From an uncultured Acidimicrobiaceae bacterium (GTDB taxonomy: Bacteria > Actinomycetota > Acidimicrobiia > Spongiisociales > UBA5794): a DNA stretch of 28,706 nt. Both the position numbers and the translations under genes were made by a program. The notes under the pieces are model-generated. The model saw only the letters and a list, made by a program, of their open reading frames with translations. It was not told where the DNA came from and ran no database searches. The stretch spans positions 1 to 28,706 of the forward strand of contig CAZULI010000002.1 in assembly GCA_964621095.1 (NCBI GenBank), given 5' to 3'. This document shows positions 612 through 23,806 of the stretch, one piece after another; the first letter of the stretch is position 1, and each line of letters starts with the position of its first letter.

Positions 612-1280
612 TCACCTCATCGACTCTCGCGCCGCGAGTTGGACGTCCCGACCGGCCCGGATGTGCGCGACCATCTCTTCCTGGGCCCGTGCACCGTCCC
701 CGCTCAGGAGCGCGTCAAGAAGAGGAACGTGTTCATCACTCACGTGATGGCTGTGTTTCTGCGGGTTGAAGGCGTGCGCGTACATCCGCAACCCGATGCT
801 TCGCGTCCAGACCGAATCGAAGAGTTCCACCAGCACGGGGTTGTTCGTTGCCTCCACAACGGCGCGATGAACCCGCTCATTGGTCCGAAACGCCTCGGTG
901 ACGGTTGTTGGGATGTTCTCGGACTCGGACCGAACGATCTGCTCCAGTTTCGCCAGAGCGCTCGGATTGCCTTTTTCGGCAACCACCCGGGCCGCAAACC
1001 CCTCGATCGCGATGCGTGCTTCGTACAAGTCGTTGATGTCGTCCTCTGCGATGTCGCGAACGAAGAACCCTCGCCGTTGCACGAACTCAAGGATCCCCTC
1101 CTGTTCGAGGTGGAGAAGCGCTTCGCGTACCGGTGTCCTGCTCACCGCGAGCTCGGCGGCGAGTGACTCCTGAATGAGGCGACTTCCGGGAGGGATCGTT
1201 CCACTGACGATGGCGTCGAAGATCTGTTCATAAACGGACTCTGCCAGCCGCGTCTGGGTCTGTTCGATTTTGCTGAACAC
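612..1280 (-). CDS. GntR family transcriptional regulator (FadR/FCD subfamily)
   Basis: wHTH VYEQIFDAIVSGTIPPGSRLIQESLAAELAVSRTPVREAL plus FCD domain (NERVHRAVVEATNNP...EHVPLLDAL). Start placed at GTG 1280 behind a GGGAGG RBS rather than at 1310. Confidence 0.93.
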   Translation of the reverse strand: MFSKIEQTQTRLAESVYEQIFDAIVSGTIPPGSRLIQESLAAELAVSRTPVREALLHLEQEGILEFVQRRGFFVRDIAEDDINDLYEARIAIEGFAARVVAEKGNPSALAKLEQIVRSESENIPTTVTEAFRTNERVHRAVVEATNNPVLVELFDSVWTRSIGLRMYAHAFNPQKHSHHVSDEHVPLLDALLSGDGARAQEEMVAHIRAGRDVQLAARESMR

Positions 1281-1350: not shown

Positions 1351-1368
1351 CTGAATACAACATACAGG
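1351..1368 (-). promoter_or_regulatory. Putative GntR operator 1 (upstream of gntR)
   Basis: Minus strand CCTGTATGTTGTATTCAG; 13/18 identical to operator 2. Confidence 0.6.
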
Positions 1369-1529
1369 AGGCGCACAGGTGGGTATCCGTGGCCATGGGG
1401 GAGCGCGTCAGAGAGCGCCCAGGCACATGGATCACGCATCTCCGGGTTCTGAACGCTCCTCCTCGTGCGGCCCATTCGGTGACCAGATCCCCCTTCCGGG
1501 GACGGTTGGGCCGGGCCCCCGTGTTTGAG

Positions 1530-1564
1530 TTGCACGCAAGGAATTTGCTGTATACCGTATTCAA
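1530..1564 (+). promoter_or_regulatory. sigma70-type promoter of operon A with overlapping putative GntR operator 2
   Basis: TTGCAC (1530-1535)-N17-TACCGT (1553-1558). The motif GCTGTATACCGTATTCAA (1547-1564) overlaps the -10 box. Confidence 0.65.
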
Positions 1565-1610
1565 CCAGATCGGGTGGTGGCAGAACGCTGCACTCGCAAC
1601 GGAGGTACCA

Positions 1611-2897
1611 ATGTTCCATAGCAACAAACCGTTGGAAGGGTCCATTCGCAGACGGTGGTTCACGATGGTGGTGGTGATGGCACTCCTTGTGGCCGCATGC
1701 TCAGGATCAGCAGACGAGACAACAACAACGACGGAACCGGGTGGAGGGACGACGACAGCGCCACCGACGAACGGCTCAAGCACCCTTGATGACTGGTTGG
1801 CCGTGGACATGTCAGCGTGTGCAGACGCACCCACCGGTGACCCGTTCATCATCGGGTACGCCGCGGATTTCTCTGAGGTGGGTGGGTTTGCTGACGAACC
1901 GGGTGCAGCAGCCGCCAAGTTCATGGCTGATCTCATCACGTGCGCCGGTGGCGTCGATGGCCATCCGGTTCAGATGATTGTTGAAGACATCCAAGGTGAC
2001 CCGGACGTGACCCAACGTGCGGCACGAGACCTGCTCGATGCCGGCGTCCATGCAATCCTCGGCCCTCCGTTCTCGGACTTCGGACTGCCGTTGCTCCAGG
2101 TGGTAGGTGGCCAGGTGCCGGTCATCTTCGTGTCTTCGACGGAACCGATCCTTGCCGATGAGAGTCAGCTCTCATTCCTGGGAACGGTTGATGACACTCG
2201 TCAGGCGACCGATGCAGCGCTCTTTGCTCGCGAGCAGGGGTATGGCACCGCGGTGACGTTCAGTATTCCGGGACCGTACTTCGGGTACAACCCTGAGATC
2301 TTTACCCAGGTGTTCACCGAAGGCGGTGGCACGGTTCTCGGCGACTACACCTTCAGCATGGAAGACAACGACTTCTCGACCCAGGTGAACGCGATCGCTG
2401 GGCTTCCCGAGGCGCCTGAGGTGCTGTACACGGCGATGCTCACCCCCCAGCTTGGTGTCCTGATGCCACAGCTGGCGGCCGCAAACATCACGCCGACGTA
2501 CATCTTTGCTGATGCCGCCGACGCAACCCGTGTCTGGGATCTCGGGGAGATCTCTGAAGGGGTGTACTTCACCAGCCATGCATTCCCATCACCGGAGAAC
2601 GACCTCCAGGCGTTCCTCGACAAGTATGAGGAAGTGACCGGCGCACCGCTCGACACGTTGTCGTTCGGTGGCTTGGCTGCGGACGCCGTGATTCTGATGA
2701 CGGACGCCTTTGAGCGATCCGGCTTCCAGCTCGACGGGGTCGCGATCGGCAACGCCCTCAAGGAAGCATCCAACGTGAAGGTTGTGACCGGGACCGTCAG
2801 CTACAAGGGATCAAACGGGGTGCAGCAGAAGCCGCTGTACATCCTGCAAGTCCAGAATGGGGAGGTCGGTCTCGTCAAGATCATGGGCGGCTCCTAG
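1611..2897 (+). CDS. ABC transporter substrate-binding lipoprotein, branched-chain amino acid/amide (LivK-like, type I periplasmic binding fold)
   Basis: GGAGG RBS at 1601-1605, lipobox LLVAA-C and Thr-rich linker. EDIQGDPDV...ARDLLDAGVHAILGPPFS is typical of LivK-like SBPs, and Liv-type ATPase/permeases follow. Confidence 0.9.
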   Translation: MFHSNKPLEGSIRRRWFTMVVVMALLVAACSGSADETTTTTEPGGGTTTAPPTNGSSTLDDWLAVDMSACADAPTGDPFIIGYAADFSEVGGFADEPGAAAAKFMADLITCAGGVDGHPVQMIVEDIQGDPDVTQRAARDLLDAGVHAILGPPFSDFGLPLLQVVGGQVPVIFVSSTEPILADESQLSFLGTVDDTRQATDAALFAREQGYGTAVTFSIPGPYFGYNPEIFTQVFTEGGGTVLGDYTFSMEDNDFSTQVNAIAGLPEAPEVLYTAMLTPQLGVLMPQLAAANITPTYIFADAADATRVWDLGEISEGVYFTSHAFPSPENDLQAFLDKYEEVTGAPLDTLSFGGLAADAVILMTDAFERSGFQLDGVAIGNALKEASNVKVVTGTVSYKGSNGVQQKPLYILQVQNGEVGLVKIMGGS

Positions 2898-2915
2898 AAC
2901 GCGGGACATACATCC

Positions 2916-3623
2916 GTGCTGAACGTTGAGGGACTCACAACCCGATATGGATCCATCACCGGCTTGCGCGACGCTTCGATCGTCGTGCAAGCCGGTGAGA
3001 TCGTCGGGGTCATAGGGCCCAACGGCGCGGGCAAGACCACCTTGCTCAACACCATCATCGGGTTGCTGAGACCGTCTGCGGGGAGCATCCTCTTTGAGGG
3101 TGACGATGTGACCGGGCTCAGCCCCGAGGCGATGCTCCGCCGGGGCATCGCACTGGTCCCCGAGCAACGGCGGTTGTTCACCGATCTGACCGTTGAGGAG
3201 AATCTCCTGGTGGCGGGGATCACCTGCAAGGTCCGGGACCGTCACCAGAGACTGGAGGAGATCAAGGAGCTCTTCCCCGTCCTCAGCGAGAGAAGGACGA
3301 TGCTGGCTGGGTACCTCTCGGGTGGGGAGGCCCAGCAGTTGGCCATCGGCAGGGGGCTCATGAGCCGCCCACGACTCCTGCTGATGGATGAGCCCACTCT
3401 TGGGCTGGCGCCGAACCTTGTCTCCATGGTGTTCGATCTCGTGACCCGTCTGCGCGACGATGGCATGACGCTCATCGTGGTGGAACAGAACGCCCAGCGG
3501 CTTCTGGAAGTGGCTGACCGTGCGTATCTGTTGCGGACCGGCAACGTCGTGTCGCAGTCAACCGGCGCGGACCTCATGGGGCGTGACAGTCTCTTTGACG
3601 CATACCTGGGGACACCCAAGTGA
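2916..3623 (+). CDS. ABC transporter ATP-binding protein (LivF-like)
   Basis: Walker A GPNGAGKT, signature LSGGEAQQL, Walker B LLLMDEP, H-loop region VEQNA. Confidence 0.95.
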   Translation: MLNVEGLTTRYGSITGLRDASIVVQAGEIVGVIGPNGAGKTTLLNTIIGLLRPSAGSILFEGDDVTGLSPEAMLRRGIALVPEQRRLFTDLTVEENLLVAGITCKVRDRHQRLEEIKELFPVLSERRTMLAGYLSGGEAQQLAIGRGLMSRPRLLLMDEPTLGLAPNLVSMVFDLVTRLRDDGMTLIVVEQNAQRLLEVADRAYLLRTGNVVSQSTGADLMGRDSLFDAYLGTPK

Positions 3624-4507
3624 ACGTCTTCATCCAACAACTGGTTGAAGGCTTGGGCCAAGGCAGCATCTACGCCCTCCTGGCACTCTCGCTCGCCGTG
3701 ATCTTTGGGGTGATGCATCTCGTCAACTTCGCCCACGGAGAGTTGATCACCATCTCGTCCTACGTTGCCTACGCGCTGTTGACTGCGGGGTACGGGTGGG
3801 AGGTCGTGGCTCCAGCGGTCCTCGTTACCTCGATCGTGGCGTCGGTTGCGATTGAGTTTCTCGCCTTTCGATGGGTACGGGGTGCGGATGAGTTCACCAT
3901 GCTCCTGACGTCGTTTGGTGTGCATTTCGTCGTCAGCGCGTTGTTCCTGATGTTCGTTTCTGCCAAGCCTCTCGCCTTTCCCAAGCCGAGTTGGATCTTC
4001 AACACGGTCAACGTCCTCGGGATCAATCTTGAAATCTTTGACCTCGTGACCGTGATCGTCACGCTCCTGACGCTCATCGCCACGGCGTGGCTCCTGCGCA
4101 AGACCATGTTTGGCATCACGCTGCGCGCGGCATCTCTCGATTTTGATGCAGCCCGCCTGATGGGGGTTCGATCCAACGGTGTCATCCGAGGAGCGTTTGC
4201 GATGTCGGGCGCTCTGGCGGGCGTCGCGGGAATCCTGTGGCTGATGAGGACCGGTACCGCCCACCCAACCGCCGGCCTGACGCCGCTGCTGTTCGCCGTG
4301 ATTGCGGTCGTTGTTGGCGGCTTGGAGAGTCTGAGCGGTGCGGTGCTCGGAGGGTTGGCGCTGGGAATCGTCCAGGTCATGCTTCGCGGCTATCTGCCAC
4401 CGTCCCTGTCCGGCCTGACCGAGGGGCTGTTGTTCGTCCTCCTTGCGCTGCTGTTCATCTTCCGACCGCAAGGGTTGATCTCGGTGAGAAGGGCGGAACG
4501 AGTCTGA
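3620..4507 (+). CDS. ABC transporter permease (LivH-like)
   Basis: GSIYALLALSLAVIFGVMHLVNFAHGE motif and FGITLRAAS...AARLMGV loop; GTGA overlap with the upstream ATPase. Confidence 0.93.
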   Translation: MNVFIQQLVEGLGQGSIYALLALSLAVIFGVMHLVNFAHGELITISSYVAYALLTAGYGWEVVAPAVLVTSIVASVAIEFLAFRWVRGADEFTMLLTSFGVHFVVSALFLMFVSAKPLAFPKPSWIFNTVNVLGINLEIFDLVTVIVTLLTLIATAWLLRKTMFGITLRAASLDFDAARLMGVRSNGVIRGAFAMSGALAGVAGILWLMRTGTAHPTAGLTPLLFAVIAVVVGGLESLSGAVLGGLALGIVQVMLRGYLPPSLSGLTEGLLFVLLALLFIFRPQGLISVRRAERV

Positions 4508-6342
4508 TGAGAACGCGCCTCCTGGACCGGTGGGTACTGCCCTTGGGAGGGCAACTCGTGCTCCTCGCGGTTCTGGTGGCCGGGGGCATGCTCTATGCAT
4601 CAACCGGCGGGAGTGGGCGTGATCTTCTGGTGAACCAAATGTTCATCAACGCAATTCTCGTCGTTGGCCTTCAGGTGTACATGGGTAACACCGGGATCAT
4701 CAGCTTTGGACACATGGGGTTTGCCGCCATCGGTGGCTACGTGGTGATCCTGTTGGTGATGACTCCAACCATGAAGACGAACATCATCCCTGATGCGCCC
4801 ACGTGGATCGGCAACATCCAGATGGACCCATGGACCGCAACCGCCATCGCGATCGTGGTCGTACTCGTGTTCACCTTCATCGTCGGCTTGGGGTTGATCC
4901 GTGCCGTACGAGGTGCAGGCCCTGTCGCTGCCACCATGATCACGCTTGCACTCCTGTTCCTCGTACGTGAAGTGGCATCCAACTTTGTCTCCCTCACGGC
5001 TGGGAACCGTTCCGGGTTGGCGCTGGGTGCAGGGCAGGGCCTCAACGGGAGGGCCTGGATCTACGTTGGATTGATCTTCTCGGTTGTCGTTGCCCGCATG
5101 TTCCGTGAGAGCCGGCAGGGACGACTCGGTCAGGCGATGCGCGACGACGATCTGGCAGCCAGGGCGATGGGAGTCAATCCGGCGGTTCCCCACATGACCG
5201 CCTTGCTGTTGAGCGTGTTGATCATCACCGTGGGCGCGTCGCTACGGGTGCTCTCCCTCGGGTCGATGACACCGAACTTCTTCTTTTTCGATCTGACCCT
5301 CCTGACCCTTGCAATGTTGATCGTCGGTGGGCGCGGGAGCGTGACGGGCAGCATCGTGGGCGTCGCCGTGATCACGGTGGGAAATGAGGTCACCCGAGTC
5401 CTGGCAAGCGACTCGGTGACGGTGCCAGGTCTCAACTGGTTCCTGCGGCCCGGGCTGTCTGCCCTCTTCCTCGGTGGTGCGATGCTCGGGTTCATGTTGC
5501 TACGACCACAGGGCATCCTGGGTGACCGCGAACTCGAGGACCCGTTGCGGCGTCGCCTCAGAAAACTCGCTGAGCCGCCCGAACCACCGGTGAGCCTTCC
5601 GCATCCAGGTGATGCCAGGCTGGTCACCCGTGGGATCACGGTGCGGTTCGGCGGCTTCGTTGCGGTCGACGATGTCTCTCTCGAGGTGGGGGTCGGTGAG
5701 GTGGTGGGCCTCATCGGACCAAACGGAGCTGGCAAGACAACGCTGATCAACGCCATCACCGGCGTCATCCAGCCAACGGGTGGTACCTGGCGTCTTGGCG
5801 ATCATGACCTCGCGAGACTGTCGTCCTTCCAGGTGGCGCGGCGCGGTATTGCAAGGACGTTTCAGAATCTCAGATTGTTCAGCAACCTCACCGTGCGTGA
5901 GAACATCTCCGTTTCATCGATCGTTGCCGCCCGTCACCGCAAGGAACGCACGGTCCCCGATGGTGACGCGCTGATTTTTGCGGTGGGGTTGTGGGAGGAC
6001 CGGGAAAGTCGTGCCGGTGAGGTCAACTACGGCGCGGCCCGAAAGCTCGAACTGATACGAGCCGCAGCGCTGGCGCCCGAGATCCTCCTTCTCGACGAGC
6101 CGACCGCCGGCATGTGGGAGGAGGACTCGGTGGCCATGGTCACCCAGATCCGGCAGGTTGCTTCCTGGATCGGGGCGGGTGTCCTCGTCATCGACCATGA
6201 TCTCCACTTCATCACGGCGATTTGCGATCGGATCTATGTGCTCGACCAGGGGGAGATCATCGCCCACGGGACGGCCGCGGAGGTGAAGGCCGATCCGCGG
6301 GTCCAAGCTGCGTATCTCGGAACTGACGAGCCCGCCGACTGA
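4507..6342 (+). CDS. Fused ABC permease-ATPase (LivM-LivG-like)
   Basis: ATG 4507 overlaps the previous TGA. N-terminal permease (GIISFGHMGFAAIGGY; AMRDDDLAARAMGVN) is fused to an ATPase (GPNGAGKT, ILLLDEP, IDHD). Confidence 0.92.
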   Translation: MRTRLLDRWVLPLGGQLVLLAVLVAGGMLYASTGGSGRDLLVNQMFINAILVVGLQVYMGNTGIISFGHMGFAAIGGYVVILLVMTPTMKTNIIPDAPTWIGNIQMDPWTATAIAIVVVLVFTFIVGLGLIRAVRGAGPVAATMITLALLFLVREVASNFVSLTAGNRSGLALGAGQGLNGRAWIYVGLIFSVVVARMFRESRQGRLGQAMRDDDLAARAMGVNPAVPHMTALLLSVLIITVGASLRVLSLGSMTPNFFFFDLTLLTLAMLIVGGRGSVTGSIVGVAVITVGNEVTRVLASDSVTVPGLNWFLRPGLSALFLGGAMLGFMLLRPQGILGDRELEDPLRRRLRKLAEPPEPPVSLPHPGDARLVTRGITVRFGGFVAVDDVSLEVGVGEVVGLIGPNGAGKTTLINAITGVIQPTGGTWRLGDHDLARLSSFQVARRGIARTFQNLRLFSNLTVRENISVSSIVAARHRKERTVPDGDALIFAVGLWEDRESRAGEVNYGAARKLELIRAAALAPEILLLDEPTAGMWEEDSVAMVTQIRQVASWIGAGVLVIDHDLHFITAICDRIYVLDQGEIIAHGTAAEVKADPRVQAAYLGTDEPAD

Positions 6343-6355
6343 CCCCGTTTGTGTC

Positions 6356-6377
6356 TCGGCACCCGCAAGGCTGCCGA
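6356..6377 (+). other. Small intergenic hairpin with GCAA tetraloop
   Basis: TCGGCA-C-CC-GCAA-GG-C-TGCCGA between the ABC fusion and the SDR; no U-tract, so possibly a stability or processing element. Confidence 0.35.
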
Positions 6378-6412
6378 ACCGGTCGGGTGAAGTGGCCAAC
6401 CAAAGGAGATCG

Positions 6413-7192
6413 ATGGGAACATCGGGGATGAGACACGAGAACAAGAAAGCGTTCATCACCGGTGCCGGATCCGGTATCGGACGCGAGACCGCGTTGCGTC
6501 TCTCCCGGGAGGGGGCGGGCGTACTTGTCACCGACATCAACGCCGACTCCGCAGCGGAGACCGCACGTATGATCGAAGCCGAGGGCGGGTCGGCACTCCA
6601 CGCACGGATGGATGTGCGTGACCGAGCTGAGATCCAAGCAGCGGTCGCCATGGCAGACGATGCCTGGGGTGCCCTGCATCTTCTTGTCAACAACGCCGGT
6701 CTTGTGACGAAGCACTCGCTTGCTGATCTGACCGAGGAAGCGTGGGACCTCGTTCTGGATGTGAATCTCAAGGGTCAGTTCCTGGTCGCCCAGGAGGTCT
6801 CCAAGCTCATCGCCCGATCGGGGGGTGGTGCCATCGTCAACCTCTCGACGGTAGAGGCACTCGTCGTCGTCACCAGTGGCACCACCGCCCAGCCGCACTA
6901 CAACGCGAGCAAGGGCGGGGTTCCCATGCTCACGAAGGCACTGGCGGTTGAGCTTGCAAGCGCAAACATCCGGGTCAACTGTGTTGCGCCGGGCCCCGTG
7001 GCGACCGATTTCTTTGATTATGAAGCGGTGACAAGTGACGAGGCCCTCGAAGCGATGAAACAGCGTCTCCTGGTGCCACGAGTCGGGTTGCCAAGCGACA
7101 TAGCAGCGGCGATCTCCTGGCTCCTGTCCGACGACGCCTCCTACGTCGACGGCATCCAACTGCCGGTTGATGGAGGGTGGACGACACGGTGA
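6413..7192 (+). CDS. Short-chain dehydrogenase/reductase (classical SDR)
   Basis: TGAGSGIG, NNAG, catalytic YNASK, RVNCVAPG, C-terminal VDGGW; AAGGAG RBS before ATG 6413. Confidence 0.95.
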   Translation: MGTSGMRHENKKAFITGAGSGIGRETALRLSREGAGVLVTDINADSAAETARMIEAEGGSALHARMDVRDRAEIQAAVAMADDAWGALHLLVNNAGLVTKHSLADLTEEAWDLVLDVNLKGQFLVAQEVSKLIARSGGGAIVNLSTVEALVVVTSGTTAQPHYNASKGGVPMLTKALAVELASANIRVNCVAPGPVATDFFDYEAVTSDEALEAMKQRLLVPRVGLPSDIAAAISWLLSDDASYVDGIQLPVDGGWTTR

Positions 7193-8559
7193 ACGAGTAC
7201 CTCTTGGATCCATCCCAGATGGAGACCCTTGGCATTCGCACGGTCATCGTCGCGTCCCCCGATCTCGCCGGTCGTCTGATCGGGCGACGGGTACCCACGT
7301 CGCGCTTCCCACAGGTCGTGGAGAACGGCGTGGATGTCTGTTCCTGTGTCTTTGCTTGGGACGTCAACCAGGGGTTGGAGCTCCTGGAAACGAACGTGCT
7401 CCCCCTGTGCGGCCTGCACAACGGCCTCCCCGATGTCACCCTGCGGGTCGACCTCACGACGCTTCGTCGGGCGGCCTGGCTTGATGGGGTCGCCATTTGT
7501 TTTGCGGATCCGGTCGATGTGAAGACCGGTGACCCGCTCCCACTGTCGCCCCGAGTCATGCTCAAACAGGAGTTGGCGCGGTACGCCGAACTCGGGTACG
7601 CCCCCAAGACCGGAACGGAGTTGGAGTTCTACCTCTTTCTCAACGATCAGCGCACCCTGAGAGAGGAGGGGTTCCGGGGTCTGCGCCCAACGACGGTCGT
7701 CGCGTCCGATTTCATGATCCATGAGGGAAACGCGTACGAACCGTTTTTCCAGAAGCTCCGTAGCGATCTCGCCGAAAGTGGCGTCGATGTCGAGGCCGCC
7801 CAATCCGAGTTGGGTACCGGACAGTGGGAGATGACGTTTGTGTATGGCGATCCACTCGAGATGGCTGACCGCCACGCCTTGTACAAACTCGCCGTTCGCG
7901 ACGCGGCGATTGCTGCTGGGATGTCAGCGACGTTCATGGCGCGCCCTCTCAATGTCCAACCGGGGTCGTCATGTCATGTCCACCTCTCCCTGCAGTCCTT
8001 GGACGGGGAGCAGATGTTCTGGGATGACGTCGCCGATGACCGCATGAGCACCGTGATGCGCTCCGCCATTGGTGGGGTGTTGGAGCATGCACCAGAGTTC
8101 ATGGCTTGGTACGCGCCGACCGTCAACTCGTGGCGACGTACCGTCTCAACGGAGGCCGCAGGATGGGGCCGGACCTGGGGGTTTGACAACCGAACGGTCA
8201 CGGTTCGGGTCCTTGGCCACAAACCTCAGCATCTCCGACTCGAGTTCCGACTCCCCGGTGCGGACACCAACCCGTATCTGACCTTGTCGGCGCTGCTCGC
8301 TTCGGCACGCAGCGGCATCGCGTCCGGCACCGAGTTGATGGCTCCGGTGACCGGGAACGCGTACGACCTTCCGTACGACGAGGGGATGCCGACGTCATTG
8401 CATGAGGCAACATTGGCGTTCGAGTCGTCGCGCCTGGCTGCCGAGGCGTTCGGACGCGACGTCATCGACCATCATGTCGTGATGCTCAACCATGAGTGGT
8501 CCGTCTTCCTCGCTGAGGTCTCCGCGTGGGATCTCGATCGATACTTTGATCGCATCTGA
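7189..8559 (+). CDS. Glutamine synthetase-like gamma-glutamyl-amine ligase (GlnA4/PuuA type)
   Basis: GTELEFYLF, ELGTGQWEM, GSSCHVHLSL, DNRTVTVR, EFRLPGADTNPY; GTGA overlap with the SDR; lacks GSI-type N-terminal features. Confidence 0.88.
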   Translation: MNEYLLDPSQMETLGIRTVIVASPDLAGRLIGRRVPTSRFPQVVENGVDVCSCVFAWDVNQGLELLETNVLPLCGLHNGLPDVTLRVDLTTLRRAAWLDGVAICFADPVDVKTGDPLPLSPRVMLKQELARYAELGYAPKTGTELEFYLFLNDQRTLREEGFRGLRPTTVVASDFMIHEGNAYEPFFQKLRSDLAESGVDVEAAQSELGTGQWEMTFVYGDPLEMADRHALYKLAVRDAAIAAGMSATFMARPLNVQPGSSCHVHLSLQSLDGEQMFWDDVADDRMSTVMRSAIGGVLEHAPEFMAWYAPTVNSWRRTVSTEAAGWGRTWGFDNRTVTVRVLGHKPQHLRLEFRLPGADTNPYLTLSALLASARSGIASGTELMAPVTGNAYDLPYDEGMPTSLHEATLAFESSRLAAEAFGRDVIDHHVVMLNHEWSVFLAEVSAWDLDRYFDRI

Positions 8560-8563
8560 TCGG

Positions 8564-10021
8564 ATGGAACGCCACACGTTGACGCACCCCGATCTCGTCA
8601 CCTGGATCGGTGGCGTCCCAGAACTCAGCGCCATTGAGTCGGACGCTGCACTCTTCGATCCCAACACGTCGATCCCGCTCCAGGAGTTGAGATCGTCCTC
8701 TCCGGCACAGACCGACCGGGCCATTGCAGCAGCAGCGTTCGCCCATGAGGCGGGGGAGTGGCGACGGGGTGGCGCCGAGGCTCGCTCGGTGGCGCTGCAT
8801 GCGTTCGCCAAACGTCTTGACGAGATTGCTGACCGTGTTGCGGTGCTCGATGCGATCAACAGCGGGGTACCCATCTCGGTCACCCGCTTGTTTGCCGGAT
8901 CGATGGGGGGGACCGTGCGAGCCGCGGCCGACAGGGCAGTGTCGGTGGGGGACGTCGATACCCTTCCGGCGGACGGTCGCACGGTGCAGTTGCGCAAGGT
9001 GCCGTGGGGGCCGACAGCGTTGATCCTGCCGTGGAACGCTCCTTCCGCCATGGCCACCAAGAAACTCGCGTACTGCCTTGCTGCAGGCGCCACCGCGATC
9101 GTGAAACCATCCCCGATGTCACCGTGGAGCGCCCTCCTCATCGTGGAGGCGGCCCAGGACACCGGGCTCCCCCCAGGAGTGATCAATCTCGTCCTCGGTG
9201 GCCGCGAGGTCGGCGAACAGTTGGTCGGGGACCCTCGGATCCGCGCCATCGCCATGACCGGCTCGACCCCCACGGGGAGAGGGATTGCAGCGAGGGCCGC
9301 GGCCAATCTGACGAGAGTGCAGCTGGAGCTCGGGTCGAACAACGCGGCCATCGTGCGCGCTGATGCTGACCTCGGCGCCACGGCTGCCAGCCTTGCATCG
9401 GGTGCAATGAAACTCTCTGGTCAGTGGTGCGAAGCCCCCCGCCGAGTCCTCGTGGATCACACGATCCTTCCACAACTCGTTGACGCTCTGTGTGAGGCAC
9501 TGGCAGGGATGCGCCTCGGTTCGAGTCTGGAGGATGAGACCGAGATCGGTCCGGTGGCGTTTGAGGCCCGTCGTTCGGAACTGCGGTCACAACTCTCAGA
9601 ACTCGTCGCAGGGGGAGCACGGGCGATCGAAACGGGTACGCCACCGGACGCGGGTTGGTTCGTGTCACCGACGGTGGTTGTCGGTGAGGGCATGAACCCG
9701 GAGCAGGAACTCTTCGGGCCGATCATCACCGTGCAACCGACCCGGGGCGACGACGATGCGGTCGCCATGGGAAACCAGGGTCTTCATGGCCTCGCCGGGT
9801 ATGTCTACTCCGAGAACCTTGACGAGGCGATGGCGATCGGAGCCAAACTCGTGGCGGGCGAGGTGAAGGTGAACGGGTCAAGTGTGCTTGATCTCGCACC
9901 CGACGCCGTTCAGAGTTTCTTTGGGGGGAGTGGCATCGGCGGTCACGGTGATGCGGATCTCCTGGAGTTCTTCCGAGGTACCCAGGTGGTGGGTGTGGAG
10001 GCGCCGGGCCTGCCGATCTGA
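8564..10021 (+). CDS. NAD(P)-dependent aldehyde dehydrogenase (non-acylating ALDH superfamily)
   Basis: PWNAP, TGST, catalytic Glu in LELGSN, catalytic Cys in SGQWCEA, ELFGP; ATG 4 nt after the GS-like stop. Confidence 0.92.
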   Translation: MERHTLTHPDLVTWIGGVPELSAIESDAALFDPNTSIPLQELRSSSPAQTDRAIAAAAFAHEAGEWRRGGAEARSVALHAFAKRLDEIADRVAVLDAINSGVPISVTRLFAGSMGGTVRAAADRAVSVGDVDTLPADGRTVQLRKVPWGPTALILPWNAPSAMATKKLAYCLAAGATAIVKPSPMSPWSALLIVEAAQDTGLPPGVINLVLGGREVGEQLVGDPRIRAIAMTGSTPTGRGIAARAAANLTRVQLELGSNNAAIVRADADLGATAASLASGAMKLSGQWCEAPRRVLVDHTILPQLVDALCEALAGMRLGSSLEDETEIGPVAFEARRSELRSQLSELVAGGARAIETGTPPDAGWFVSPTVVVGEGMNPEQELFGPIITVQPTRGDDDAVAMGNQGLHGLAGYVYSENLDEAMAIGAKLVAGEVKVNGSSVLDLAPDAVQSFFGGSGIGGHGDADLLEFFRGTQVVGVEAPGLPI

Positions 10022-10039
10022 GGGTCGGTGTGCGCCCGG

Positions 10040-10079
10040 GTGTCCTGGTGCCACCGGTGGTTTCGGGCCACCAGGACAC
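10040..10079 (+). terminator. Inverted repeat after operon A (probable terminator)
   Basis: 11-bp perfect stem GTGTCCTGGTG (10040-10050) / CACCAGGACAC (10069-10079), about 20 nt after the ALDH stop and upstream of the next promoter. Confidence 0.6.
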
Positions 10080-10137
10080 GGGTTCAGGGCCGCGTTCATC
10101 GGGGGAGTGTGGAGGTCCAAGCAGCGTTCTGTGCCAG

Positions 10138-10172
10138 TTGCATCCCTTTTGTATGCCGTGTACTGTATACAA
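10138..10172 (+). promoter_or_regulatory. sigma70-type promoter of operon B with overlapping putative GntR operator 3
   Basis: TTGCAT (10138-10143)-N17-TACTGT (10161-10166). GCCGTGTACTGTATACAA (10155-10172) is 14/18 identical to operator 2, in the same register to the -10 box. Confidence 0.65.
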
Positions 10173-10199: not shown

Positions 10200-11144
10200 A
10201 TGTGTGGAATTGCTGGTCGCATCCTTGACAAGCCGGGGCCCGTGGGCGCAGATCTTGTCGAGCTGATGCAGGCCCAGCGGCATCGGGGGGCCGACTCCAC
10301 CGGGTTTGCGCTGTACGGCACACCGCTTGAGTCGGGGTACCGCGTCGGGATGTTCCTTGATGATCGGTCCCAGGCCCCGAACGTCATTGACCGGTTCGGG
10401 CAGATCATGAACCGCCATGGTGCTGACATCGTGGAGACGCCGACCCTCAACGACGCGGACACACGCCACGGCGCACTCCGGTTCACGGTGTCGGAACCCG
10501 ACAGCCCGATCGCCGATTGGACGGCTGAGTGCGACACGATCGGGGGTACTGAACTCCTCTCGGTTGGGCGCTCACTTGAGATCGTCAAGGACGACGGGGA
10601 TGCAGCACAGGTGGCGGATCGCCACGGTGTGCGTGATTTCGTGGGAACGCACGGGACAGGTCACGCCCGACTTGCCACGGAGTCGGTCGTCTCACCCATC
10701 GCAAGCCACCCGTTCTGGGCGAGGCCGTTCCCGGATGTGGCCATCGTGCACAACGGCCAACTCACCAACTACTTCCTGTGGAGGAGACGCCTCGAGCATC
10801 AGGGGTACCGCTTCAGCACCGAGAACGATTCCGAGCTGATCGCCGTGTGGCTCTCTGACCAGATGAATTCGGGGACAACGCTTGAGGAATCCCTTCGGGC
10901 AAGCATCACTGCGCTTGACGGTGTGTTCACGTTCCTTCTGTCAACGTTTGATCAGATCGGGATGGCAAAGGATCGTCTCGCCATCAAGCCCATCGTCGCC
11001 GTTGAGACCAACAGCGAGGCCGCAATGGCGACCGAGGAACAAGCGATCCGGCACTTGTACGGGGGTGAGGTCGAACCGATCAACTACGACGGTCCGGGGA
11101 TGGTCAAGGTATGGCCGGTCAGCACAGGAGTTGGGGTGTCATGA
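10200..11144 (+). CDS. mgsA: Class II (Ntn) glutamine amidotransferase, N-methylglutamate synthase subunit A / GlxB-like
   Basis: N-terminal MCGIAG (Cys1 nucleophile), GHARLATES, HPF, HNGQLTN, TENDSE; AAGGAG RBS; followed by GXGXG and FMN subunits. Confidence 0.85.
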   Translation: MCGIAGRILDKPGPVGADLVELMQAQRHRGADSTGFALYGTPLESGYRVGMFLDDRSQAPNVIDRFGQIMNRHGADIVETPTLNDADTRHGALRFTVSEPDSPIADWTAECDTIGGTELLSVGRSLEIVKDDGDAAQVADRHGVRDFVGTHGTGHARLATESVVSPIASHPFWARPFPDVAIVHNGQLTNYFLWRRRLEHQGYRFSTENDSELIAVWLSDQMNSGTTLEESLRASITALDGVFTFLLSTFDQIGMAKDRLAIKPIVAVETNSEAAMATEEQAIRHLYGGEVEPINYDGPGMVKVWPVSTGVGVS

Positions 11145-11836
11145 GTGAGATCTTGGAGATCGAAGTCGGAGATCGACCGCTACGAGAAGTCAACGCCGAG
11201 ATTCGCACGGCGGTGGAGGAGGGCCGGGACGTCGTGCTCCACGACACACGCTCCCGCCACAACCTCGCGGTCGGGCTTCCACCGGGTGGCTCGGTGACGA
11301 TCCCCGGTGGCGTTGGGTACTACTGCGGTGGGCTCAACACGGGATCACGTGTCGCCATCGGCCGGAACGCCGGTTGGGGGCTGGGCGAGGCGATGTCGGC
11401 AGGGGAGATCGTCGTGGATGGCTACGCCGGGTTGGGCGTTGGTGCATCGATGCTTGGTGGTCTTGTCCATGTGAAAGGGGACGCCGGACCGAGGGCTGGG
11501 GTCGCGATGAAGGGCGGGGACATCGTGGTGGAAGGGTCCGTGGGGTTTCTGAGCGGGTTCATGGCCCATGCAGGCCGCATCATCGTTCTTGGCGATACGG
11601 AGGACGCGGCCGGGGATTCGTTGTGGGGCGGATGCATGTGGGTGGCAGGAAACGTTCAGTCCCTCGGTGTGGACTCCAAGCTGGTCGATCCTGACGCTGA
11701 CGAGGTGGACTCCGTCGAGGCACTGTTGACCGGTCTCGGGGTTGGTGACAGCAGTCGCTCGTGGAAAAAGATCGTGTCCGGACAGAAGCTCTGGCATTTT
11801 GACGCAAGGGATGCACAAGCATGGCTGATGATTTGA
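11141..11836 (+). CDS. mgsB: GXGXG (GltB/FmdC beta-helix) protein, N-methylglutamate synthase subunit B / GlxC-like
   Basis: Repeating Gly motifs (GRNAGWGLGEAMSAG, GDAGPRAGVAMKGG); ATGA overlap with mgsA. Confidence 0.85.
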   Translation: MSEILEIEVGDRPLREVNAEIRTAVEEGRDVVLHDTRSRHNLAVGLPPGGSVTIPGGVGYYCGGLNTGSRVAIGRNAGWGLGEAMSAGEIVVDGYAGLGVGASMLGGLVHVKGDAGPRAGVAMKGGDIVVEGSVGFLSGFMAHAGRIIVLGDTEDAAGDSLWGGCMWVAGNVQSLGVDSKLVDPDADEVDSVEALLTGLGVGDSSRSWKKIVSGQKLWHFDARDAQAWLMI

Positions 11837-13218
11837 ACAACACCACAGAGAGTCCCGTGATGCTGGAGGACGGGTCGAGTTCCGATCGTCCGGTCGGAAG
11901 TGTCTCGTCGTACGACCGTGGCAAATCAAGCAAGTGGACCCCCGAGTCGATCTCTGAGATCCAGGCCACCGCACAACTGGGTCGGTACGCCATTCGAGGG
12001 TTCTCGACGTTCCACAAGAATCTCCCATCGTTGGATGATCTGACGTTTGTTCCTGCAACACTCACGAGACTCCCCCTTGAGGGGTATCGGGAGGATTGCG
12101 ATGCAACAACGGTGCTCGGTGATCGCCCGGGCCTTGTTGAAAAGCCGATCGAGCTCGCCATCCCCGTGTACATCGCTTCGATGTCGTTCGGGGCTCTGTC
12201 GGCCTCCGCCAAGGCGGCGCTTGGCAAGGGTGCCTCCAAGGTGGGCACCATGACGTGTACCGGTGAGGGTGGGATGCTTGCCGAAGAGCGTGAAGCATCC
12301 GAGACGCTGGTGTACCAGATGACACCGTCACGGTACGGGCTGGACCTCGATCACCTCCGGCGTGCCGACGCCATCGAGATCGCCGTTGGCCAGGGAGCCA
12401 AACCGGGGACCGGCGGCGTCCTCCTGGGGATGAAGGTCTCCGAGCGTGTGGCAAAGATGCGCACCCTCCCCATGGGTGTTGATCAGCGCTCCACGGTGCG
12501 TCACCCCGATTTTCTCGGAGCCGATGACCTCCAGGTGAAGATCGAGGAACTGCGTGAGGCGGTCAATTACAAGGTTCCGATCTTCATCAAGATGGGGGCG
12601 ACGCGTCCCCGCTACGACGTCGCCCTTGCAGCAAAAGCCGGCGCCGACGTCATCGTCCTCGACGGCATGGAGGGCGGAACCAACGCCGCCCCCGAGATTC
12701 TGCTCGACCACACCGGCGTGCCAACGATGGCGGCGATCCGGGCAGGCCGTGAAGCACTCGAGGACGCCGGACTCGCCGACGACGTCAAACTCGTTGCTGC
12801 CGGGGGGATCCGGTCCGGGATTGATGCTGCGAAGGCACTTGCGCTCGGTGCGGACGCCGTCATGATCGGAACCGCCGCGAACATCGCGCTCGGGTGCAAC
12901 GCGCCACGGTACGTGAAGGATTACGAAGCCATCGGAACATCCCCTGGTCAGTGTCACCACTGCCACACGGGTCTCTGCCCGGTCGGCATCCAGACCCAGG
13001 ATCCCGAACTCGAAAAGCGAATGGATGTCGACGCCGGCGCCGAGCGGGTTGCCCGGTTCCTCACGGCGATGACGATGGAGATCACCTTGATCGCCAAGGC
13101 CTGCGGCAAGTCGAGTGTCCACAACCTGGAGCCGGAGGACCTCAGGGCGTTGTCCCTTGAGGCATCGGCGTTCACGGGAGTGGCTCTGGCGGGGATCGAT
13201 CGTCCATACACGTGGTAG
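11821..13218 (+). CDS. mgsC: FMN-binding glutamate synthase family protein, N-methylglutamate synthase subunit C / GlxD-like
   Basis: MSFGALS, TGEGG, GQGAKPGTGG, DGMEGGT, AAGGIRSG, Fe-S cysteines CHHCHTGLCPVGIQTQDP. Confidence 0.88.
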   Translation: MADDLNNTTESPVMLEDGSSSDRPVGSVSSYDRGKSSKWTPESISEIQATAQLGRYAIRGFSTFHKNLPSLDDLTFVPATLTRLPLEGYREDCDATTVLGDRPGLVEKPIELAIPVYIASMSFGALSASAKAALGKGASKVGTMTCTGEGGMLAEEREASETLVYQMTPSRYGLDLDHLRRADAIEIAVGQGAKPGTGGVLLGMKVSERVAKMRTLPMGVDQRSTVRHPDFLGADDLQVKIEELREAVNYKVPIFIKMGATRPRYDVALAAKAGADVIVLDGMEGGTNAAPEILLDHTGVPTMAAIRAGREALEDAGLADDVKLVAAGGIRSGIDAAKALALGADAVMIGTAANIALGCNAPRYVKDYEAIGTSPGQCHHCHTGLCPVGIQTQDPELEKRMDVDAGAERVARFLTAMTMEITLIAKACGKSSVHNLEPEDLRALSLEASAFTGVALAGIDRPYTW

Positions 13219-13249
13219 CGGATCACAGGCAAATGAATGGAGGCCGTCC

Positions 13250-14539
13250 ATGACTGACAAACTTCTCCCCGGGACACACACGATCATTCTCGGCATTGGC
13301 GACCTGTGTGGAATCCTGCGAGGGAAGCATCTTCAGGCATCGATGTGGGAGAAGATCTCGGACCACGGCATCGCGATGGCGAGCGCCATCTTCGTCTTTG
13401 ACATGACGTGTGACATCTGGGACACCCCGTTCTCCAACATGGACAACGGGTACCCGGACCTGTTCGTCACCCCGATCCCGGGAACGCTGCGACCGGTGCC
13501 ATGGGCTGAGGGCACCATGCTCGCCTTCGGCGCTGCGACCCAGGAGAACGGCTCTCCCATACCGACCGATCCACGTCGTGCGCTCCAGAATGTGCTCGCA
13601 CGGTATGACGAGCTGGAGTATCAGGTCAAGGTCGGTGTGGAACTCGAGTTCTTCCTCCTTGACCCCGAGACCAAGGCACCCAGGGACACGGGTGTCCAGG
13701 TCTACGGCGTCGCCCGCGGTGCTCAGTTCGAACATGTCCTCGGGCCGATCCGAAACCAATGCACCGAGTTCGGTATCCCCATCGAGGTCTCCAACCCCGA
13801 GTACTCGAGCGGTCAGTTCGAGGTCAACATCCGTTACGGCGATGCGTTGACGTCGGTGGACAACGCGGTCCTGTTCCGTAGCGCGGTCAAACAAATCGCC
13901 GCCGAGCACGGACTTCTCGCCACGTTCATGGCCAAACCGTTCACCCACGAGTCAGGGAACGGGTTCCATATCCACCAGTCCCTCTGGCAGGGCGACCGAA
14001 ACGTCTTTGCCGATGGGCACCAGCTCTCTGAGCTCGGTCGGCACTACGTCGGAGGACTCCGCCAGCACATGGCGGAGTTCACGCTGTTCGGTGCCCCCAC
14101 CCCCAACAGTTTCAAGCGCCGCGCCCCCTACACGTTCTGTCCCATGAACAACTCCTGGGGAGGCGACAACCGGACCGTCGGTATACGGGCGGTGGAGGGG
14201 CGCCCGGATGCGGTCCGCGTCGAACAGCGTGACGCGAGCGCCGAAGCCAACCCGTATCTCGTGGTCGCAGGACAACTGGTCGCAGGACTGCATGGCATGG
14301 AGGAGAAGCTTGATCCGGGGCCACGAAACAACGGTGACGCCTACGCCGACACGGAGGCCCAACCGCTCCCGATGTCCATCCCGGAGGCGGTGACGGCGTT
14401 GCGTGGCTCCAAGCTTGCCGCAGAGGCGTTTGACCCTCAACTCATTGAGGTCCTGATCCAGATGGCTGAGCGGGAGGAGATGTTCCTGCGCACGAACGTC
14501 ACCGATTTTGAACGGGACCGATACTTGGAGGTGTATTGA
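13250..14539 (+). CDS. Second glutamine synthetase-like gamma-glutamylamide synthetase (GmaS-position gene)
   Basis: [53 protein letters not shown]; GGAGG RBS. Confidence 0.88.
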
Positions 14540-14838
14540 TGCGTATTGCTCGCGTGGTTGGCACGGCAACCGGGTCGGTCAAGGACCCACCGTTGACGGG
14601 CCAGACACTTCTCATCGTCGAGCCCGTGGATGCCCGTGGCGGGTCCATCGGGCCTCACGAGGTCGCCACCGACGCTGGAGTCGGCGCTGGGATCGGCGAC
14701 TGGGTTCTGATGGCGACGGGTTCGTCGGCGCGTCAACCCGGCTCGACACGGGGTGTGGCAACGGACGCTTCCGTTGTCCTCATTCTCGAGGAGCTCAAGT
14801 TGGGCGCCGAGACGACGTACCGCAGCGGTTTGCAATGA
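14539..14838 (+). CDS. BMC vertex pentamer protein (BMC-P, EutN/CcmL family)
   Basis: [15 protein letters not shown]...LLIVEP...[24 protein letters not shown]...DASVVLI is the EutN/CcmL pattern; TGATG coupling to the GS-like gene. Confidence 0.95.
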
Positions 14839-14912
14839 CCACACCAAAGAAAGCAACAAGACCCGCCGAGACGAAAAGTGATTCGATCCCGGCACAAGGA
14901 AAGGAAACGCGA

Positions 14913-15206
14913 ATGGCGGATCAGTCGAAAATGGCATTGGGCATGGTGGAAACGAAGGGGATGGCTGCAGCGACCGAAGCTGCGGACGCGATGCTCAAGG
15001 CCGCCAATGTGGAGCTCACCAGCTACGTGCAGGTTGGCGGAGGTCTCGTGACGGTGTTTATCCGGGGCGAGGTTGGTGCGGTCAAGGCGGCAACGGACGC
15101 AGGCGCCGTTGCGGCGAGCAAGATCGGTGATGTCCAGTCCGTCCACGTCATCGCCCGGCCCCATGACGAACTCCCGAACGTCATGTCCTACATCACCAGC
15201 GCCTGA
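14913..15206 (+). CDS. BMC shell hexamer (BMC-H, EutM/PduA/CcmK family)
   Basis: [22 protein letters not shown]...[23 protein letters not shown]...VHVIARPH. An alternative in-frame ATG at 14835 would add 26 aa. Confidence 0.96.
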
Positions 15207-15246
15207 GCACATGATCTCGTTCCGCCCACCCGTGGGAGGCGTCTGA

Positions 15247-16632
15247 GTGGACGCCGACCTGCGAAGCATCGCTCACGCCCGGGATTGTGCCGAACGCGCC
15301 AGCGTCGCGTTCGGTCAATTTCGTGGTGCCTCGCAGGAGGCCATTGACCGGATCGTTGAGGCAATGGCACGGGCAGCGGTCAGGGAGGCGGGGAGGCTTG
15401 GCGCCCTGGCAGCCGAAGAGACGGGGTACGGCAACGCCGAGGACAAGCGGATGAAGAACATCTACAACGCCCTGGGCGTTGCGGAGTGGCTTCGCAACGT
15501 GCGCACCGTCGGCGTGCTCTGGAAGGATGAGCGCACCAAGGTGATGGCGATCGGTGAGCCCATGGGGATCATCGCGGCGCTGATTCCGGTGACCAACCCG
15601 ACAGCGACGGTGATCTTCAAGGCGCTGAGTGCCGTCAAGGCAGGGAACGCGATCATCTGTGCCCCGCACCCGCGGGGTGTTCGCTCCGGGGTGGAGACGA
15701 CAGCGGTCCTTGCGGCTGCTGCCACCGAGGCGGGCGCGCCGCCCAACCTGGTTCAGTGTCTGAGCGAGGTCACCCTTGAAGCCACCTCCGAGTTGATGCG
15801 ACATCGCAAGACCTCGCTGGTGATGGCGACCGGTGGTGCTGACATGGTGCGGGCCGCGTACTCCTGTGGAAAGCCGACCCTCGCGGTTGGACCGGGGAAC
15901 GTGCCGGTGTACGTGGATGCGTCCAAACGTCACGAGCTTGAGGAGGTTGCCGAACAGATCCTCACCTCAAAGGCGTTCGACAACGGCACGGCGTGTGTGG
16001 CCGAACAAGCCGTGGTTGCCCACCGTGAGATCGCCCGTCCGCTTCGGGATGCGTTCAGAGCCAAAGGTGCGTATTTCTGCACCCCGTCCCAGGCCGAAGC
16101 CCTTGCCAAGGTGATGTTCAACGAACGAGGTGGACAGATCCCCACCCGAGTGGCGCAATCAGCCGCCAGGCTTGCCGAGTTGGCGGGGTTTGATGTGCCG
16201 ATGCGCACGCGGGTGCTCGTGGCTGACGCGTCAGAGGTGGGGAGAAACACTCCGCTCTCGCGGGAGAAACTCAACCCTGTGCTTGCGTTCTACGAGGTGG
16301 GATCGGTGGATGAGGGGTACCGCCTCTGTGAGGCGGTCCTGAACTTTGGTGGCCTCGGTCACAGTGCTGCGGTCCACACCGATGACGCCACGGTCAAGGC
16401 GCAGTTCTCCATGCTGCCGGTCGGCAGGCTGTTGATCAACACCCCGTGTGCGCTCGGTGGCATGGGGTACTCGACCGATCTCGAGCCAAGCTTCATGCTC
16501 GGTACCGGGACCTGGTCCGGATCGATTGTGTCTGACAACGTGACGGCGCTTCACTTGATCAACATCAAGCGGATCGCCGAAGAGACGCGGCCGTGGCGGA
16601 GTTTTGGTGAAATTGAAAGGACAATTCGATGA
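15247..16632 (+). CDS. CoA-acylating aldehyde dehydrogenase (EutE/PduP/AdhE-N family)
   Basis: PVTNPTAT, ATGGADMVRAAYSCGKP, VGPGNVP, catalytic SKAFDNGTACVAEQ, REKLNPVL, SFMLGTG; GGGAGG RBS. Confidence 0.93.
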   Translation: MDADLRSIAHARDCAERASVAFGQFRGASQEAIDRIVEAMARAAVREAGRLGALAAEETGYGNAEDKRMKNIYNALGVAEWLRNVRTVGVLWKDERTKVMAIGEPMGIIAALIPVTNPTATVIFKALSAVKAGNAIICAPHPRGVRSGVETTAVLAAAATEAGAPPNLVQCLSEVTLEATSELMRHRKTSLVMATGGADMVRAAYSCGKPTLAVGPGNVPVYVDASKRHELEEVAEQILTSKAFDNGTACVAEQAVVAHREIARPLRDAFRAKGAYFCTPSQAEALAKVMFNERGGQIPTRVAQSAARLAELAGFDVPMRTRVLVADASEVGRNTPLSREKLNPVLAFYEVGSVDEGYRLCEAVLNFGGLGHSAAVHTDDATVKAQFSMLPVGRLLINTPCALGGMGYSTDLEPSFMLGTGTWSGSIVSDNVTALHLINIKRIAEETRPWRSFGEIERTIR

Positions 16633-18424: not shown

Positions 18425-18443
18425 GGGTTCTTGGAGGTGATCG

Positions 18444-19760: not shown

Positions 19761-19763
19761 GGG

Positions 19764-20108
19764 ATGGCCGTGATGCAAGAGTTCTCGGGTCGACCCGTCA
19801 TCTCGGGGGAGCAGATCGAAGCAGCCGCCGAGATGGGACGTTCAGAACTGGTGATCCCTGCTGGCGCCCTCATCACGCCGCTGGCACACGAGCGGGCAGC
19901 CGCGTTGGGCATCTCTCTCAGCTCAAGCGTTGCTCCCGATCGTCACGCCGGCCACGCCGCCAGAAGAGCAGCGACGCAGGCCAAGGCGAGAGAGATCGTG
20001 GCGCGGGTGGTGGCCGCCCGGGGTGGTGACCCATCGATGGTCGATGACATGGTCAAGACCGTGATGGAGCGCATGTCGAGTAGCTGCAAGTGTGGCGATC
20101 ACCGGTAG
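19764..20108 (+). CDS. Small BMC-associated hypothetical protein (ITPxA module plus C-terminal amphipathic helix)
   Basis: Starts 3 nt after the opine DH stop. N-terminal VISGEQIEAAA...ALITPLAHERAAALGISL; C-terminal MVDDMVKTVMERM. Confidence 0.8.
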   Translation: MAVMQEFSGRPVISGEQIEAAAEMGRSELVIPAGALITPLAHERAAALGISLSSSVAPDRHAGHAARRAATQAKAREIVARVVAARGGDPSMVDDMVKTVMERMSSSCKCGDHR

Positions 20109-22102: not shown

Positions 22103-22123
22103 CCCGATTGCGGCACGGGCGAC

Positions 22124-22152: not shown

Positions 22153-22160
22153 GACCATAC

Positions 22161-23804: not shown

Positions 23805-23806
23805 GC

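Follow-up and report, generated by a model that had tools for sequence, protein, structure and literature searches.

Operator-like hexamer arrays and a probable GntR regulon around a MIC2-type microcompartment operon in an Acidimicrobiia genome

The 28,706-nt stretch analysed here (the window) makes up all of contig C2 in a metagenome-assembled genome (MAG) from the class Acidimicrobiia, 1.69 Mb in size and 83% complete. It contains a gene for a FadR-subfamily GntR regulator (gntR, 612 to 1280, minus strand), an operon of co-directional genes with short gaps that opens with an importer (the transport operon, 1611 to 10021, plus strand), and an operon for a bacterial microcompartment (BMC) of the MIC2 type (10200 to 20108, plus strand). 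The question raised by this layout is whether the three units are under common control, and by which protein. A shared motif stands upstream of each of these transcription units and is conserved together with the regulator across genomes, a pattern of conservation and co-occurrence that supports an earlier proposal, made from the letters of the window, that they form one regulon. We consider it probable, on the strength of these sequence comparisons, that three sites in the window are operators of the adjacent GntR, which would act as an effector-released repressor of the importer, the ligase- and synthase-like genes, and the MIC2 BMC.

Three putative operators and their promoters

The sequence-only reading had reported three related 18-mers, and direct reading of the window confirms both their positions and their identities. 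The first, GCTGTATACCGTATTCAA (1547 to 1564, plus strand), precedes the transport operon. The second, GCCGTGTACTGTATACAA (10155 to 10172, plus strand), precedes the BMC operon and is identical to the first at 14/18 positions, and the third, CCTGTATGTTGTATTCAG (1351 to 1368, minus strand), matches it at 13/18 and lies closest to gntR. For site 2 the 18-mer is present as described, and the true element extends further upstream: three tandem hexamers, GTATGCcGTGTACtGTATAC, occupy 10151 to 10170 of a putative operator spanning 10151 to 10172 (plus strand). The unit of the motif is a near-palindromic hexamer, GTATWC (GTA/TAC), repeated in tandem with a period of 7 bp. Two such hexamers precede the binding-protein gene that begins the transport operon (a perfect pair, GTATACcGTATTC, at 1550 to 1562), the BMC operon has three before it, and a degenerate pair (GTATGTtGTATTC, 1353 to 1365) lies some 70 nt ahead of the gntR start codon. 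Being GTATAC-like, the putative operators conform to the palindromic GT-Nx-AC type.

In the window, CTGTATNNNGTATTCA at up to three mismatches gives 8 matches versus 1.9 expected, a count reached by 0/100 shuffles. Seven of the eight fall on the three sites, where they overlap one another or lie on the opposite strand, and the remaining one, with three mismatches, is at 18274. The interior of the transport operon holds no additional match at up to two mismatches. A motif scan of the genome, which had been suggested as a check, singles out the same promoters, since GTATWCNGTATWC at no more than one mismatch occurs at three loci in 1.69 Mb, two of them being these promoters (C2:1550 and C2:10158). 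The third, at the coding start of nadD, was dismissed as coding sequence (it encodes VYGIL). TGTATACA occurs a single time in the genome, at 10164.

Both plus-strand sites cover a putative -10 element. At the transport operon, TACCGT (1553 to 1558) lies inside site 1, with a putative -35, TTGCAC, at 1530 to 1535; at the BMC operon, TACTGT (10161 to 10166) lies inside site 2, with TTGCAT at 10138 to 10143. The register TTGCA(C/T)-N17-TAC(C/T)GT that had been proposed for both promoters holds, because TACyGT occupies positions 7 to 12 of each plus-strand 18-mer. When four genomes are aligned, the only conserved parts are the TTGC of the -35, the operator, and the ribosome-binding site (RBS) with the 5' untranslated region (5'UTR). 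At the transport operon, TGAGTTGC at the -35 is invariant in the four with diverging flanks, and CTGTATACCGTATTCAA at site 1 is identical in all of them, including two in which the operon is unlinked from gntR. At the BMC operon, TTTGC is kept at the -35 and GTGTACTGTATACAA at site 2 is invariant. The arrangement of the operator over the -10 is kept in the same-genus orthologues.

The 5'UTR of the binding-protein gene (1565 to 1610, CAGATCGG.TGG...GCTGCaCTCGCgAtGGAGGTAC) is itself nearly invariant in the four genomes. It is conserved beyond the needs of an RBS, and it has no match in Rfam.

Conservation of the motif with the regulator

GntR orthologues were sought in 401 genomes sampled from the class and were found in 11, the window's included: three further genomes of the same genus (77-81% identity) and seven of other genera (44-52%). 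In 10/10 of the other genomes gntR lies 0.15-3.3 kb from the genes for the amidotransferase, the GXGXG protein and the Glu_synthase-domain protein with which the BMC operon begins. Genes for BMC shell proteins, the acylating aldehyde dehydrogenase (AldDh), Ldh or the second glutamine synthetase (GS)-like ligase (GS2) are also visible in nine of the ten regions examined, and the tenth, on a short contig (G154), has an opine dehydrogenase orthologue on the same contig. The gene order of the BMC operon is conserved in L016, L001, L002, L018 and L023. Opine dehydrogenase orthologues of at least 72% identity occur in eight genomes, and all eight have the GntR.

Conservation of the motif in orthologous loci was run as a test of the shared operator, and it came out in its favour: in 11/11 genomes tandem hexamers, three in most loci and two in some, precede the amidotransferase start by 26-65 nt. 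The motif also stands before gntR in most genomes with an orthologue, as related hexamer pairs 76-85 nt upstream of the gene in the three same-genus orthologues and, at other loci, as a divergent site shared with the neighbouring operon. An unbiased search for enriched 6-mers in the upstream regions of the seven distant genera recovered GTATTC/GAATAC in six of them (p = 2e-10), with overlapping words of CTGTATTCAGTA ranked next. In three relatives with genomes of 2.8-2.9 Mb, GTATWCNGTATWC at no more than one mismatch occurs genome-wide only in the amidotransferase promoter. Among the other genome-wide pattern matches, one in an acetolactate-synthase-like gene was dismissed as coding sequence (VFGIP). 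Extra perfect or one-mismatch copies of the motif outside the cluster were seen at G294:C5:14331 (L026 3332) and G142:C1:465984 (L028 1485). These possibly lie in non-coding, AT-richer DNA and could be additional members of the regulon.

Judged by its sites, the regulon would track function and not position. Most of the ten other genomes also have the motif before a transporter and before a GS-BMC operon that is transcribed separately. G142 has the same layout as the window. In G294 and G038, gntR and the BMC operon stand back to back, and about 100 kb separates them from the operon for the binding protein and ABC transporter. The site of this unlinked operon is perfect (GTATACCGTATTC; CTGTATACCGTATTCAA) and begins 17 nt after a TTGCAA, at an unchanged distance from that -35. 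In other genera an APC-family amino-acid permease, with its own site, replaces the ABC system, and a separate GS2-BMC-AldDh-Ldh operon (L017 2349, L019 15006) has a site of its own about 50 nt upstream of GS2.

At the latter two loci (L017 2250-2330, L019 15020-15080) a gene starting MTATRYAVIGAGI points away from the GS2-BMC operon, with one operator common to both. The product looks like an FAD/NAD-binding oxidoreductase and may serve as another enzyme for oxidising amines or N-alkylglutamates; the opine dehydrogenase-like gene of L017 and L019 is strongly diverged (about 24% identity). In several genera an open reading frame (ORF) lies between the permease and amidotransferase genes (L019 3589-4290, L020 16899-17909, L035 2987-3565). 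It has a weak DUF3156 match in L035 and a C-terminus reading ...ITAVYFPPMPPY..., is absent from the window, and is also found upstream of the amidotransferase in L049 and L051.

The motif is found upstream in 0/10 control loci. These are amidotransferase genes that are paralogues, or come from genomes, lacking this GntR, and they comprise eight canonical gmaS-mgsA junctions and two close relatives at 55-56% identity. A sample of 400 genomes from the phylum yielded no GntR orthologue outside its own order at E <= 1e-35. A protein search recovered homologues 38-58% identical outside the class, the proteobacterial ones at 38-43%. In Phaeobacter, a Paracoccaceae MAG, a Pseudomonadales MAG and metagenome contigs, the gene for the homologue is transcribed away from an mgsA-like or GS-like neighbour, and two to four tandem hexamers stand between them.

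Phaeobacter marinintestinus, a carrier with four tandem hexamers, has the homologue next to divergent amidotransferase-GXGXG-Glu_synthase-GATase1 genes, and the intergenic region contains GTATACtGTATACaGTATTCaTATACAg as well as GTATGTcGTATCCtGTATCC adjoining gntR; the Paracoccaceae MAG and two metagenome contigs have the same arrangement. The Phaeobacter locus (L033, VOGO01000008.1, 10676-19168) also encodes a GerE-type regulator, a Liv-type ABC system and N,N-dimethylformamidase-like subunits (DMFA2_C, and DMF_alpha fused to a permease domain), which suggests a methylated amide or amine locus. In the Pseudomonadales MAG the homologue is divergent from genes for a GS-like ligase and an ABC transporter, with sites there, and a perfect site at 12709 precedes an operon of P450-reductase-GATase1 type. 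This locus (L034, JABSQZ010000002.1, 8528-15905) also holds an ADH and a hydrolase, and we take its gene set to resemble the isopropylamine (ipu) gamma-glutamylation pathway. A further homologue, P0020 (44% identity), has a motif copy before its gntR and sits beside an alanine racemase and a Na/Ala symporter. Because P0020 lies without amine genes, the clade is not functionally uniform at about 44% identity.

The regulator and how it may act

The window GntR is a protein of 222 amino acids with a winged helix-turn-helix (wHTH) domain (PF00392, residues 13-75, E = 3.9e-19) and an FCD domain (PF07729, residues 85-209, E = 3.4e-25). We place its start at the GTG at 1278-1280, since orthologue L002 has ATG at the equivalent codon. 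The longest ORF begins at a GTG at 1310, and the 222-residue database protein agrees with the shorter start. The best matches among known structures are the FCD regulators TM0439 (3fms, 3sxy) and McbR (4p9f). The histidines of RVH, DEH and VAH align with three histidines of TM0439, presumably its metal ligands, and are invariant in the 11 orthologues and the proteobacterial homologues, as is the recognition helix SRTPVREAL.

Two characterised regulators read similar sequences. DipR of Alcaligenes faecalis JQ135, a GntR/FadR repressor of dipicolinate catabolism that is released by dipicolinate, depends on GWATAC at six promoters, that of its own gene among them, and protects TTTGTATAAGGTATTCAATCTAA in one footprint (PMC11472048). 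It is like the window GntR in family and, going by the putative operators, in the GWATAC core and in having several operators within one catabolic cluster, one of them before its own gene; its sites overlap the -10/-35 region (PMC11472048), as the putative window sites overlap the -10. With one mismatch, the DipR footprint has the same arrangement of two hexamers at 7 bp, a tandem reading that is ours and not that of the source. DipR was compared by description, and it differs in having an unrelated pathway and effector and no microcompartment. Atu1419 of Agrobacterium fabrum, an FCD regulator of the VanR group (PDB 6z74, 6za0, 6za3, 6za7 and 6zab), binds as a dimer to the 10-bp palindrome ATGTATACAT over -10 boxes, regulates its own gene and reads G through Arg45; its FCD domain contains Zn, and a mutant with three histidines changed to alanine (H3A) is documented (PMC7797058). 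The Atu1419 helix ISRTPVREAL, which includes Arg45, aligns with VSRTPVREAL of the window GntR, and the window BMC site contains TGTATACA, to be compared with ATGTATACAT.

Only the N-terminal domains of the two proteins align significantly (residues 21-113, E = 4e-16), and the window GntR was rejected as an Atu1419 orthologue because full-length similarity is lacking. Atu1419 further differs in being a tetramer that loops DNA between single distant palindromes and responds to methylene-tetrahydrofolate (PMC7797058). Looping between sites 1 and 3, which are 196 bp apart (190 bp for Atu1419), was considered and dropped, since the distance varies among genomes, being 95 bp in G142 and about 150 bp in G294. 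By these comparisons the window GntR would be a FadR-type repressor with a GTATAC-type operator, which is a known kind.

In the mechanism that we propose, GntR would occupy the arrays of two to three GTATWC hexamers at their 7-bp spacing. Because the array overlaps the putative -10 at both operon promoters (transport and BMC), GntR sitting on it would keep RNA polymerase out, and the weaker site upstream of gntR would provide autoregulation. Each hexamer may be a dimer site, since DipR and Atu1419 bind such GTATAC-type cores, and the arrays may bind several dimers. An effector would bind the C-terminal FCD domain with its conserved three-histidine metal site and release GntR, so that the importer, the gamma-glutamyl-ligase/N-alkylglutamate-synthase-like genes and the MIC2-type microcompartment would be induced together. 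As effector we would guess an amine of the pathway, or the gamma-glutamyl or N-alkylglutamate derivative of such an amine; an amine-type ligand is suggested by the neighbours shared across phyla (amidotransferase, GS-like ligase, transporters) and by the metal-type FCD pocket. A tentative extension, which we find conceivable and would not yet favour, is that the homologues form a clade of alkylamine-catabolism regulators across Acidimicrobiia, Alpha- and Gammaproteobacteria, with two to four palindromic GTATWC hexamers in 7-bp register as an unusual operator and a metal-containing FCD pocket that senses a gamma-glutamyl-alkylamide or N-alkylglutamate, and that this clade recruited MIC2 in Acidimicrobiia.

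GntR-family control of such genes has a parallel in TmoR (SPO1553) of Ruegeria pomeroyi, a repressor of tmm in methylated-amine catabolism (PMC13390433). As the window GntR would, it belongs to an amine-catabolic cluster, there one with gmaS-mgsABC, and its inferred effectors are amines (dimethylamine and trimethylamine N-oxide). It differs in that it regulates tmm only, with gmaS-mgs being activated by the AraC-type TmaR, and no operator motif has been defined for it (PMC13390433).

Several observations weigh against the proposed repressor and its regulon. Site 3 is degenerate, with two mismatches, and genome-wide pattern counts do not exceed what composition predicts, so that the signal lies in where the matches are placed. 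The spacing of hexamers in 41 operator regions counts in favour, with 40 pairs at 7 bp, 12 at 14 bp and almost none otherwise, but part of the 7-bp peak comes from the search pattern itself, which does not impose the 14-bp peak or the scarcity of other spacings. A 7-bp offset between dimer-sized palindromes is also sterically unusual. The orthologous loci were found via GntR itself, which makes its co-occurrence with the motif partly one of construction, a bias that the GntR-less control offsets. A strict sigma-70 scan of both intergenic regions reports no promoter, so the promoter calls are based on conservation, and the -35/-10 hexamers are weak, matching 6/12 positions of the Escherichia coli consensus. 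In L018 and L023 the operator is not over the -10 and lies just downstream of a better promoter, TTGACA/TTGACG-N17-18-TAnnnT, so that the geometry, repressor-like as it is, is not uniform across genera. There is, finally, the SDR-GS1-ALDH trio (short-chain dehydrogenase/reductase, first GS-like ligase, aldehyde dehydrogenase) of the transport operon, which only operon structure in the window genome ties to the regulon. No motif lies upstream of the corresponding trio in G294 and G038, and membership of these three genes is thus left without independent support. The G294/G038 trio (54/45/42% identity to the window's; L024, G294:C27:232000-247999; L025, G038:C3:360000-375999; L031; L032) faces the unlinked ABC operon tail to tail. 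It may be under other control, or a paralogue of the window's trio.

Among other explanations of the sites, the one that survives best is that GntR binds them and activates transcription, or has a dual role, at some promoters. The weak promoter hexamers are typical of activator-dependent promoters, the position of the operator relative to the better-defined promoters varies between genera, and an activator of the FCD family, CitO, exists (PMC4746285). We nevertheless regard activation as improbable: the array overlaps the spacer and -10 in the window and the same-genus genomes, the downstream array of L018 and L023 falls around the expected transcription start site, both of which are repressor-like positions, and the closest characterised relatives that bind GTATAC, DipR and Atu1419, are repressors.

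Slightly less probable still is that the element is read by some other factor, or is a sigma-specific -10, and that its linkage to gntR is coincidental. The conserved block does coincide in part with the putative -10, and binding of the motif by GntR is something we infer. Against this, the motif is found on either strand, its distance from -35-like elements varies, and it also stands before gntR; it accompanies GntR homologues in Alpha- and Gammaproteobacteria and is absent from amidotransferase clusters without the GntR; its palindromic GTATAC core is what wHTH dimers of FadR/VanR type bind; and no Rfam RNA family matches there. Chance similarity of AT-richer intergenic stretches, for which one could point to the degenerate site 3 and to intergenic DNA that is relatively AT-rich in a genome of 62% GC, is extremely improbable given the shuffles, the two best genome-wide matches falling at these very promoters, the invariance of the sites across orthologues whose flanks diverge, and the 6-mer enrichment. 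We therefore retain GntR as the probable repressor acting at the three sites.

The MIC2 locus and what its regulator offers

The genes that this repressor would control were assigned by Pfam, and all are on the plus strand. The transport operon encodes a Peripla_BP_6 binding protein (1611-2897), a LivF-like ATPase (2916-3623), a LivH permease (3620-4507) and a LivM-LivG fusion (4537-6342), followed by the SDR (6392-7192), GS1 (7177-8559) and ALDH (8492-10021). The BMC operon opens with a class-II, mgsA-like amidotransferase (10200-11144), a GXGXG protein (11111-11836) and a Glu_synthase-domain protein (11821-13218), which together make an N-methylglutamate-synthase-like trio. These are followed by GS2 (13115-14539), the first BMC shell gene (14508-15206), the acylating AldDh (15247-16632), the second shell gene (16629-17255), an Ldh/Mdh protein with an N-terminal extension (17252-18424), an opine dehydrogenase-like protein (18444-19760) and an ORF of 114 amino acids (19764-20108).

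MIC2 is catalogued as a BMC type of unknown function that has no signature aldehyde-generating enzyme, and supplement file 6 of the catalogue, in its MIC2 passage, describes an AldDh, a pfam02866 Ldh/Mdh with an N-terminal extension of about 70 residues, a 6-phosphogluconate-dehydrogenase-like protein and a pfam00120 GS (PMC8217296). The enzyme set of the window operon agrees by Pfam with this description (Sutter et al. 2021), with Aldedh, Ldh_1_N/C from residue 88, Octopine_DH/NAD_Gly3P_dh_N, Gln-synt_C and two PF00936 genes; no BMC vertex protein (pfam03319) was found among the window ORFs scanned. In the accessible main text and supplements of the catalogue GntR is not mentioned, and the MIC2 passage names no regulator (PMC8217296). 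By AldDh phylogeny, the supplement of the catalogue gives RMM1 as the nearest characterised BMC type (PMC8217296). In Rhodococcus erythropolis MAK154, at the RMM1/aminoacetone-utilisation locus, amino-2-propanol induces a short-chain dehydrogenase via a GntR protein (Urano et al. 2011, as cited in PMC4207490). That locus is like the window in combining a GntR-family regulator and an amino-acid permease with an actinobacterial, amine-related microcompartment (PMC4207490), and differs from it in enzyme set.

A gap of 178 nt separates the transport and BMC operons. It contains, 3' of the ALDH stop, a GC-rich hairpin (10040 to 10080, plus strand) with a perfect stem of 11 bp (-39.5 kcal/mol, z = -1.8), which has no T tract and whose sequence is not kept in G142. 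A terminator scan of both intergenic regions returned nothing, and the hairpin is at best a weak candidate for a terminator between the two operons. In Rfam the window has a single match, a tRNA gene near the right contig end (27813-27885, minus strand, 67 bits), and its intergenic regions have none.

Downstream of the BMC operon, positions 20252-25920 hold small ORFs and genes for an ECH-family protein, a PaaA/PaaC-like protein and a CMD protein. No motif copy at up to two mismatches occurs there, which places these genes outside the regulon as defined by the motif. The tRNA gene and a truncated AbiEii-type toxin gene (28315-28704, minus strand) at the right contig end are likewise outside it.

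The putative operator provides a first regulatory and experimental handle on MIC2, linking the organelle to amine import and gamma-glutamylation. It ties the operon for the shell, AldDh, Mdh and opine dehydrogenase-like proteins to an amine-type importer (ABC or APC by genus), to gamma-glutamyl-ligase/N-methylglutamate-synthase-like genes and to one regulator small enough to express readily, and the motif can be used to annotate members of the regulon in related genomes. The question of the MIC2 substrate thereby becomes a bench question, namely which ligand frees GntR from a 20-bp DNA, and culturable proteobacterial carriers such as Phaeobacter marinintestinus allow genetics even though these Acidimicrobiia are uncultured. 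If the homologues do form a clade of amine regulators, the identity of the effector would reveal the substrate of MIC2.

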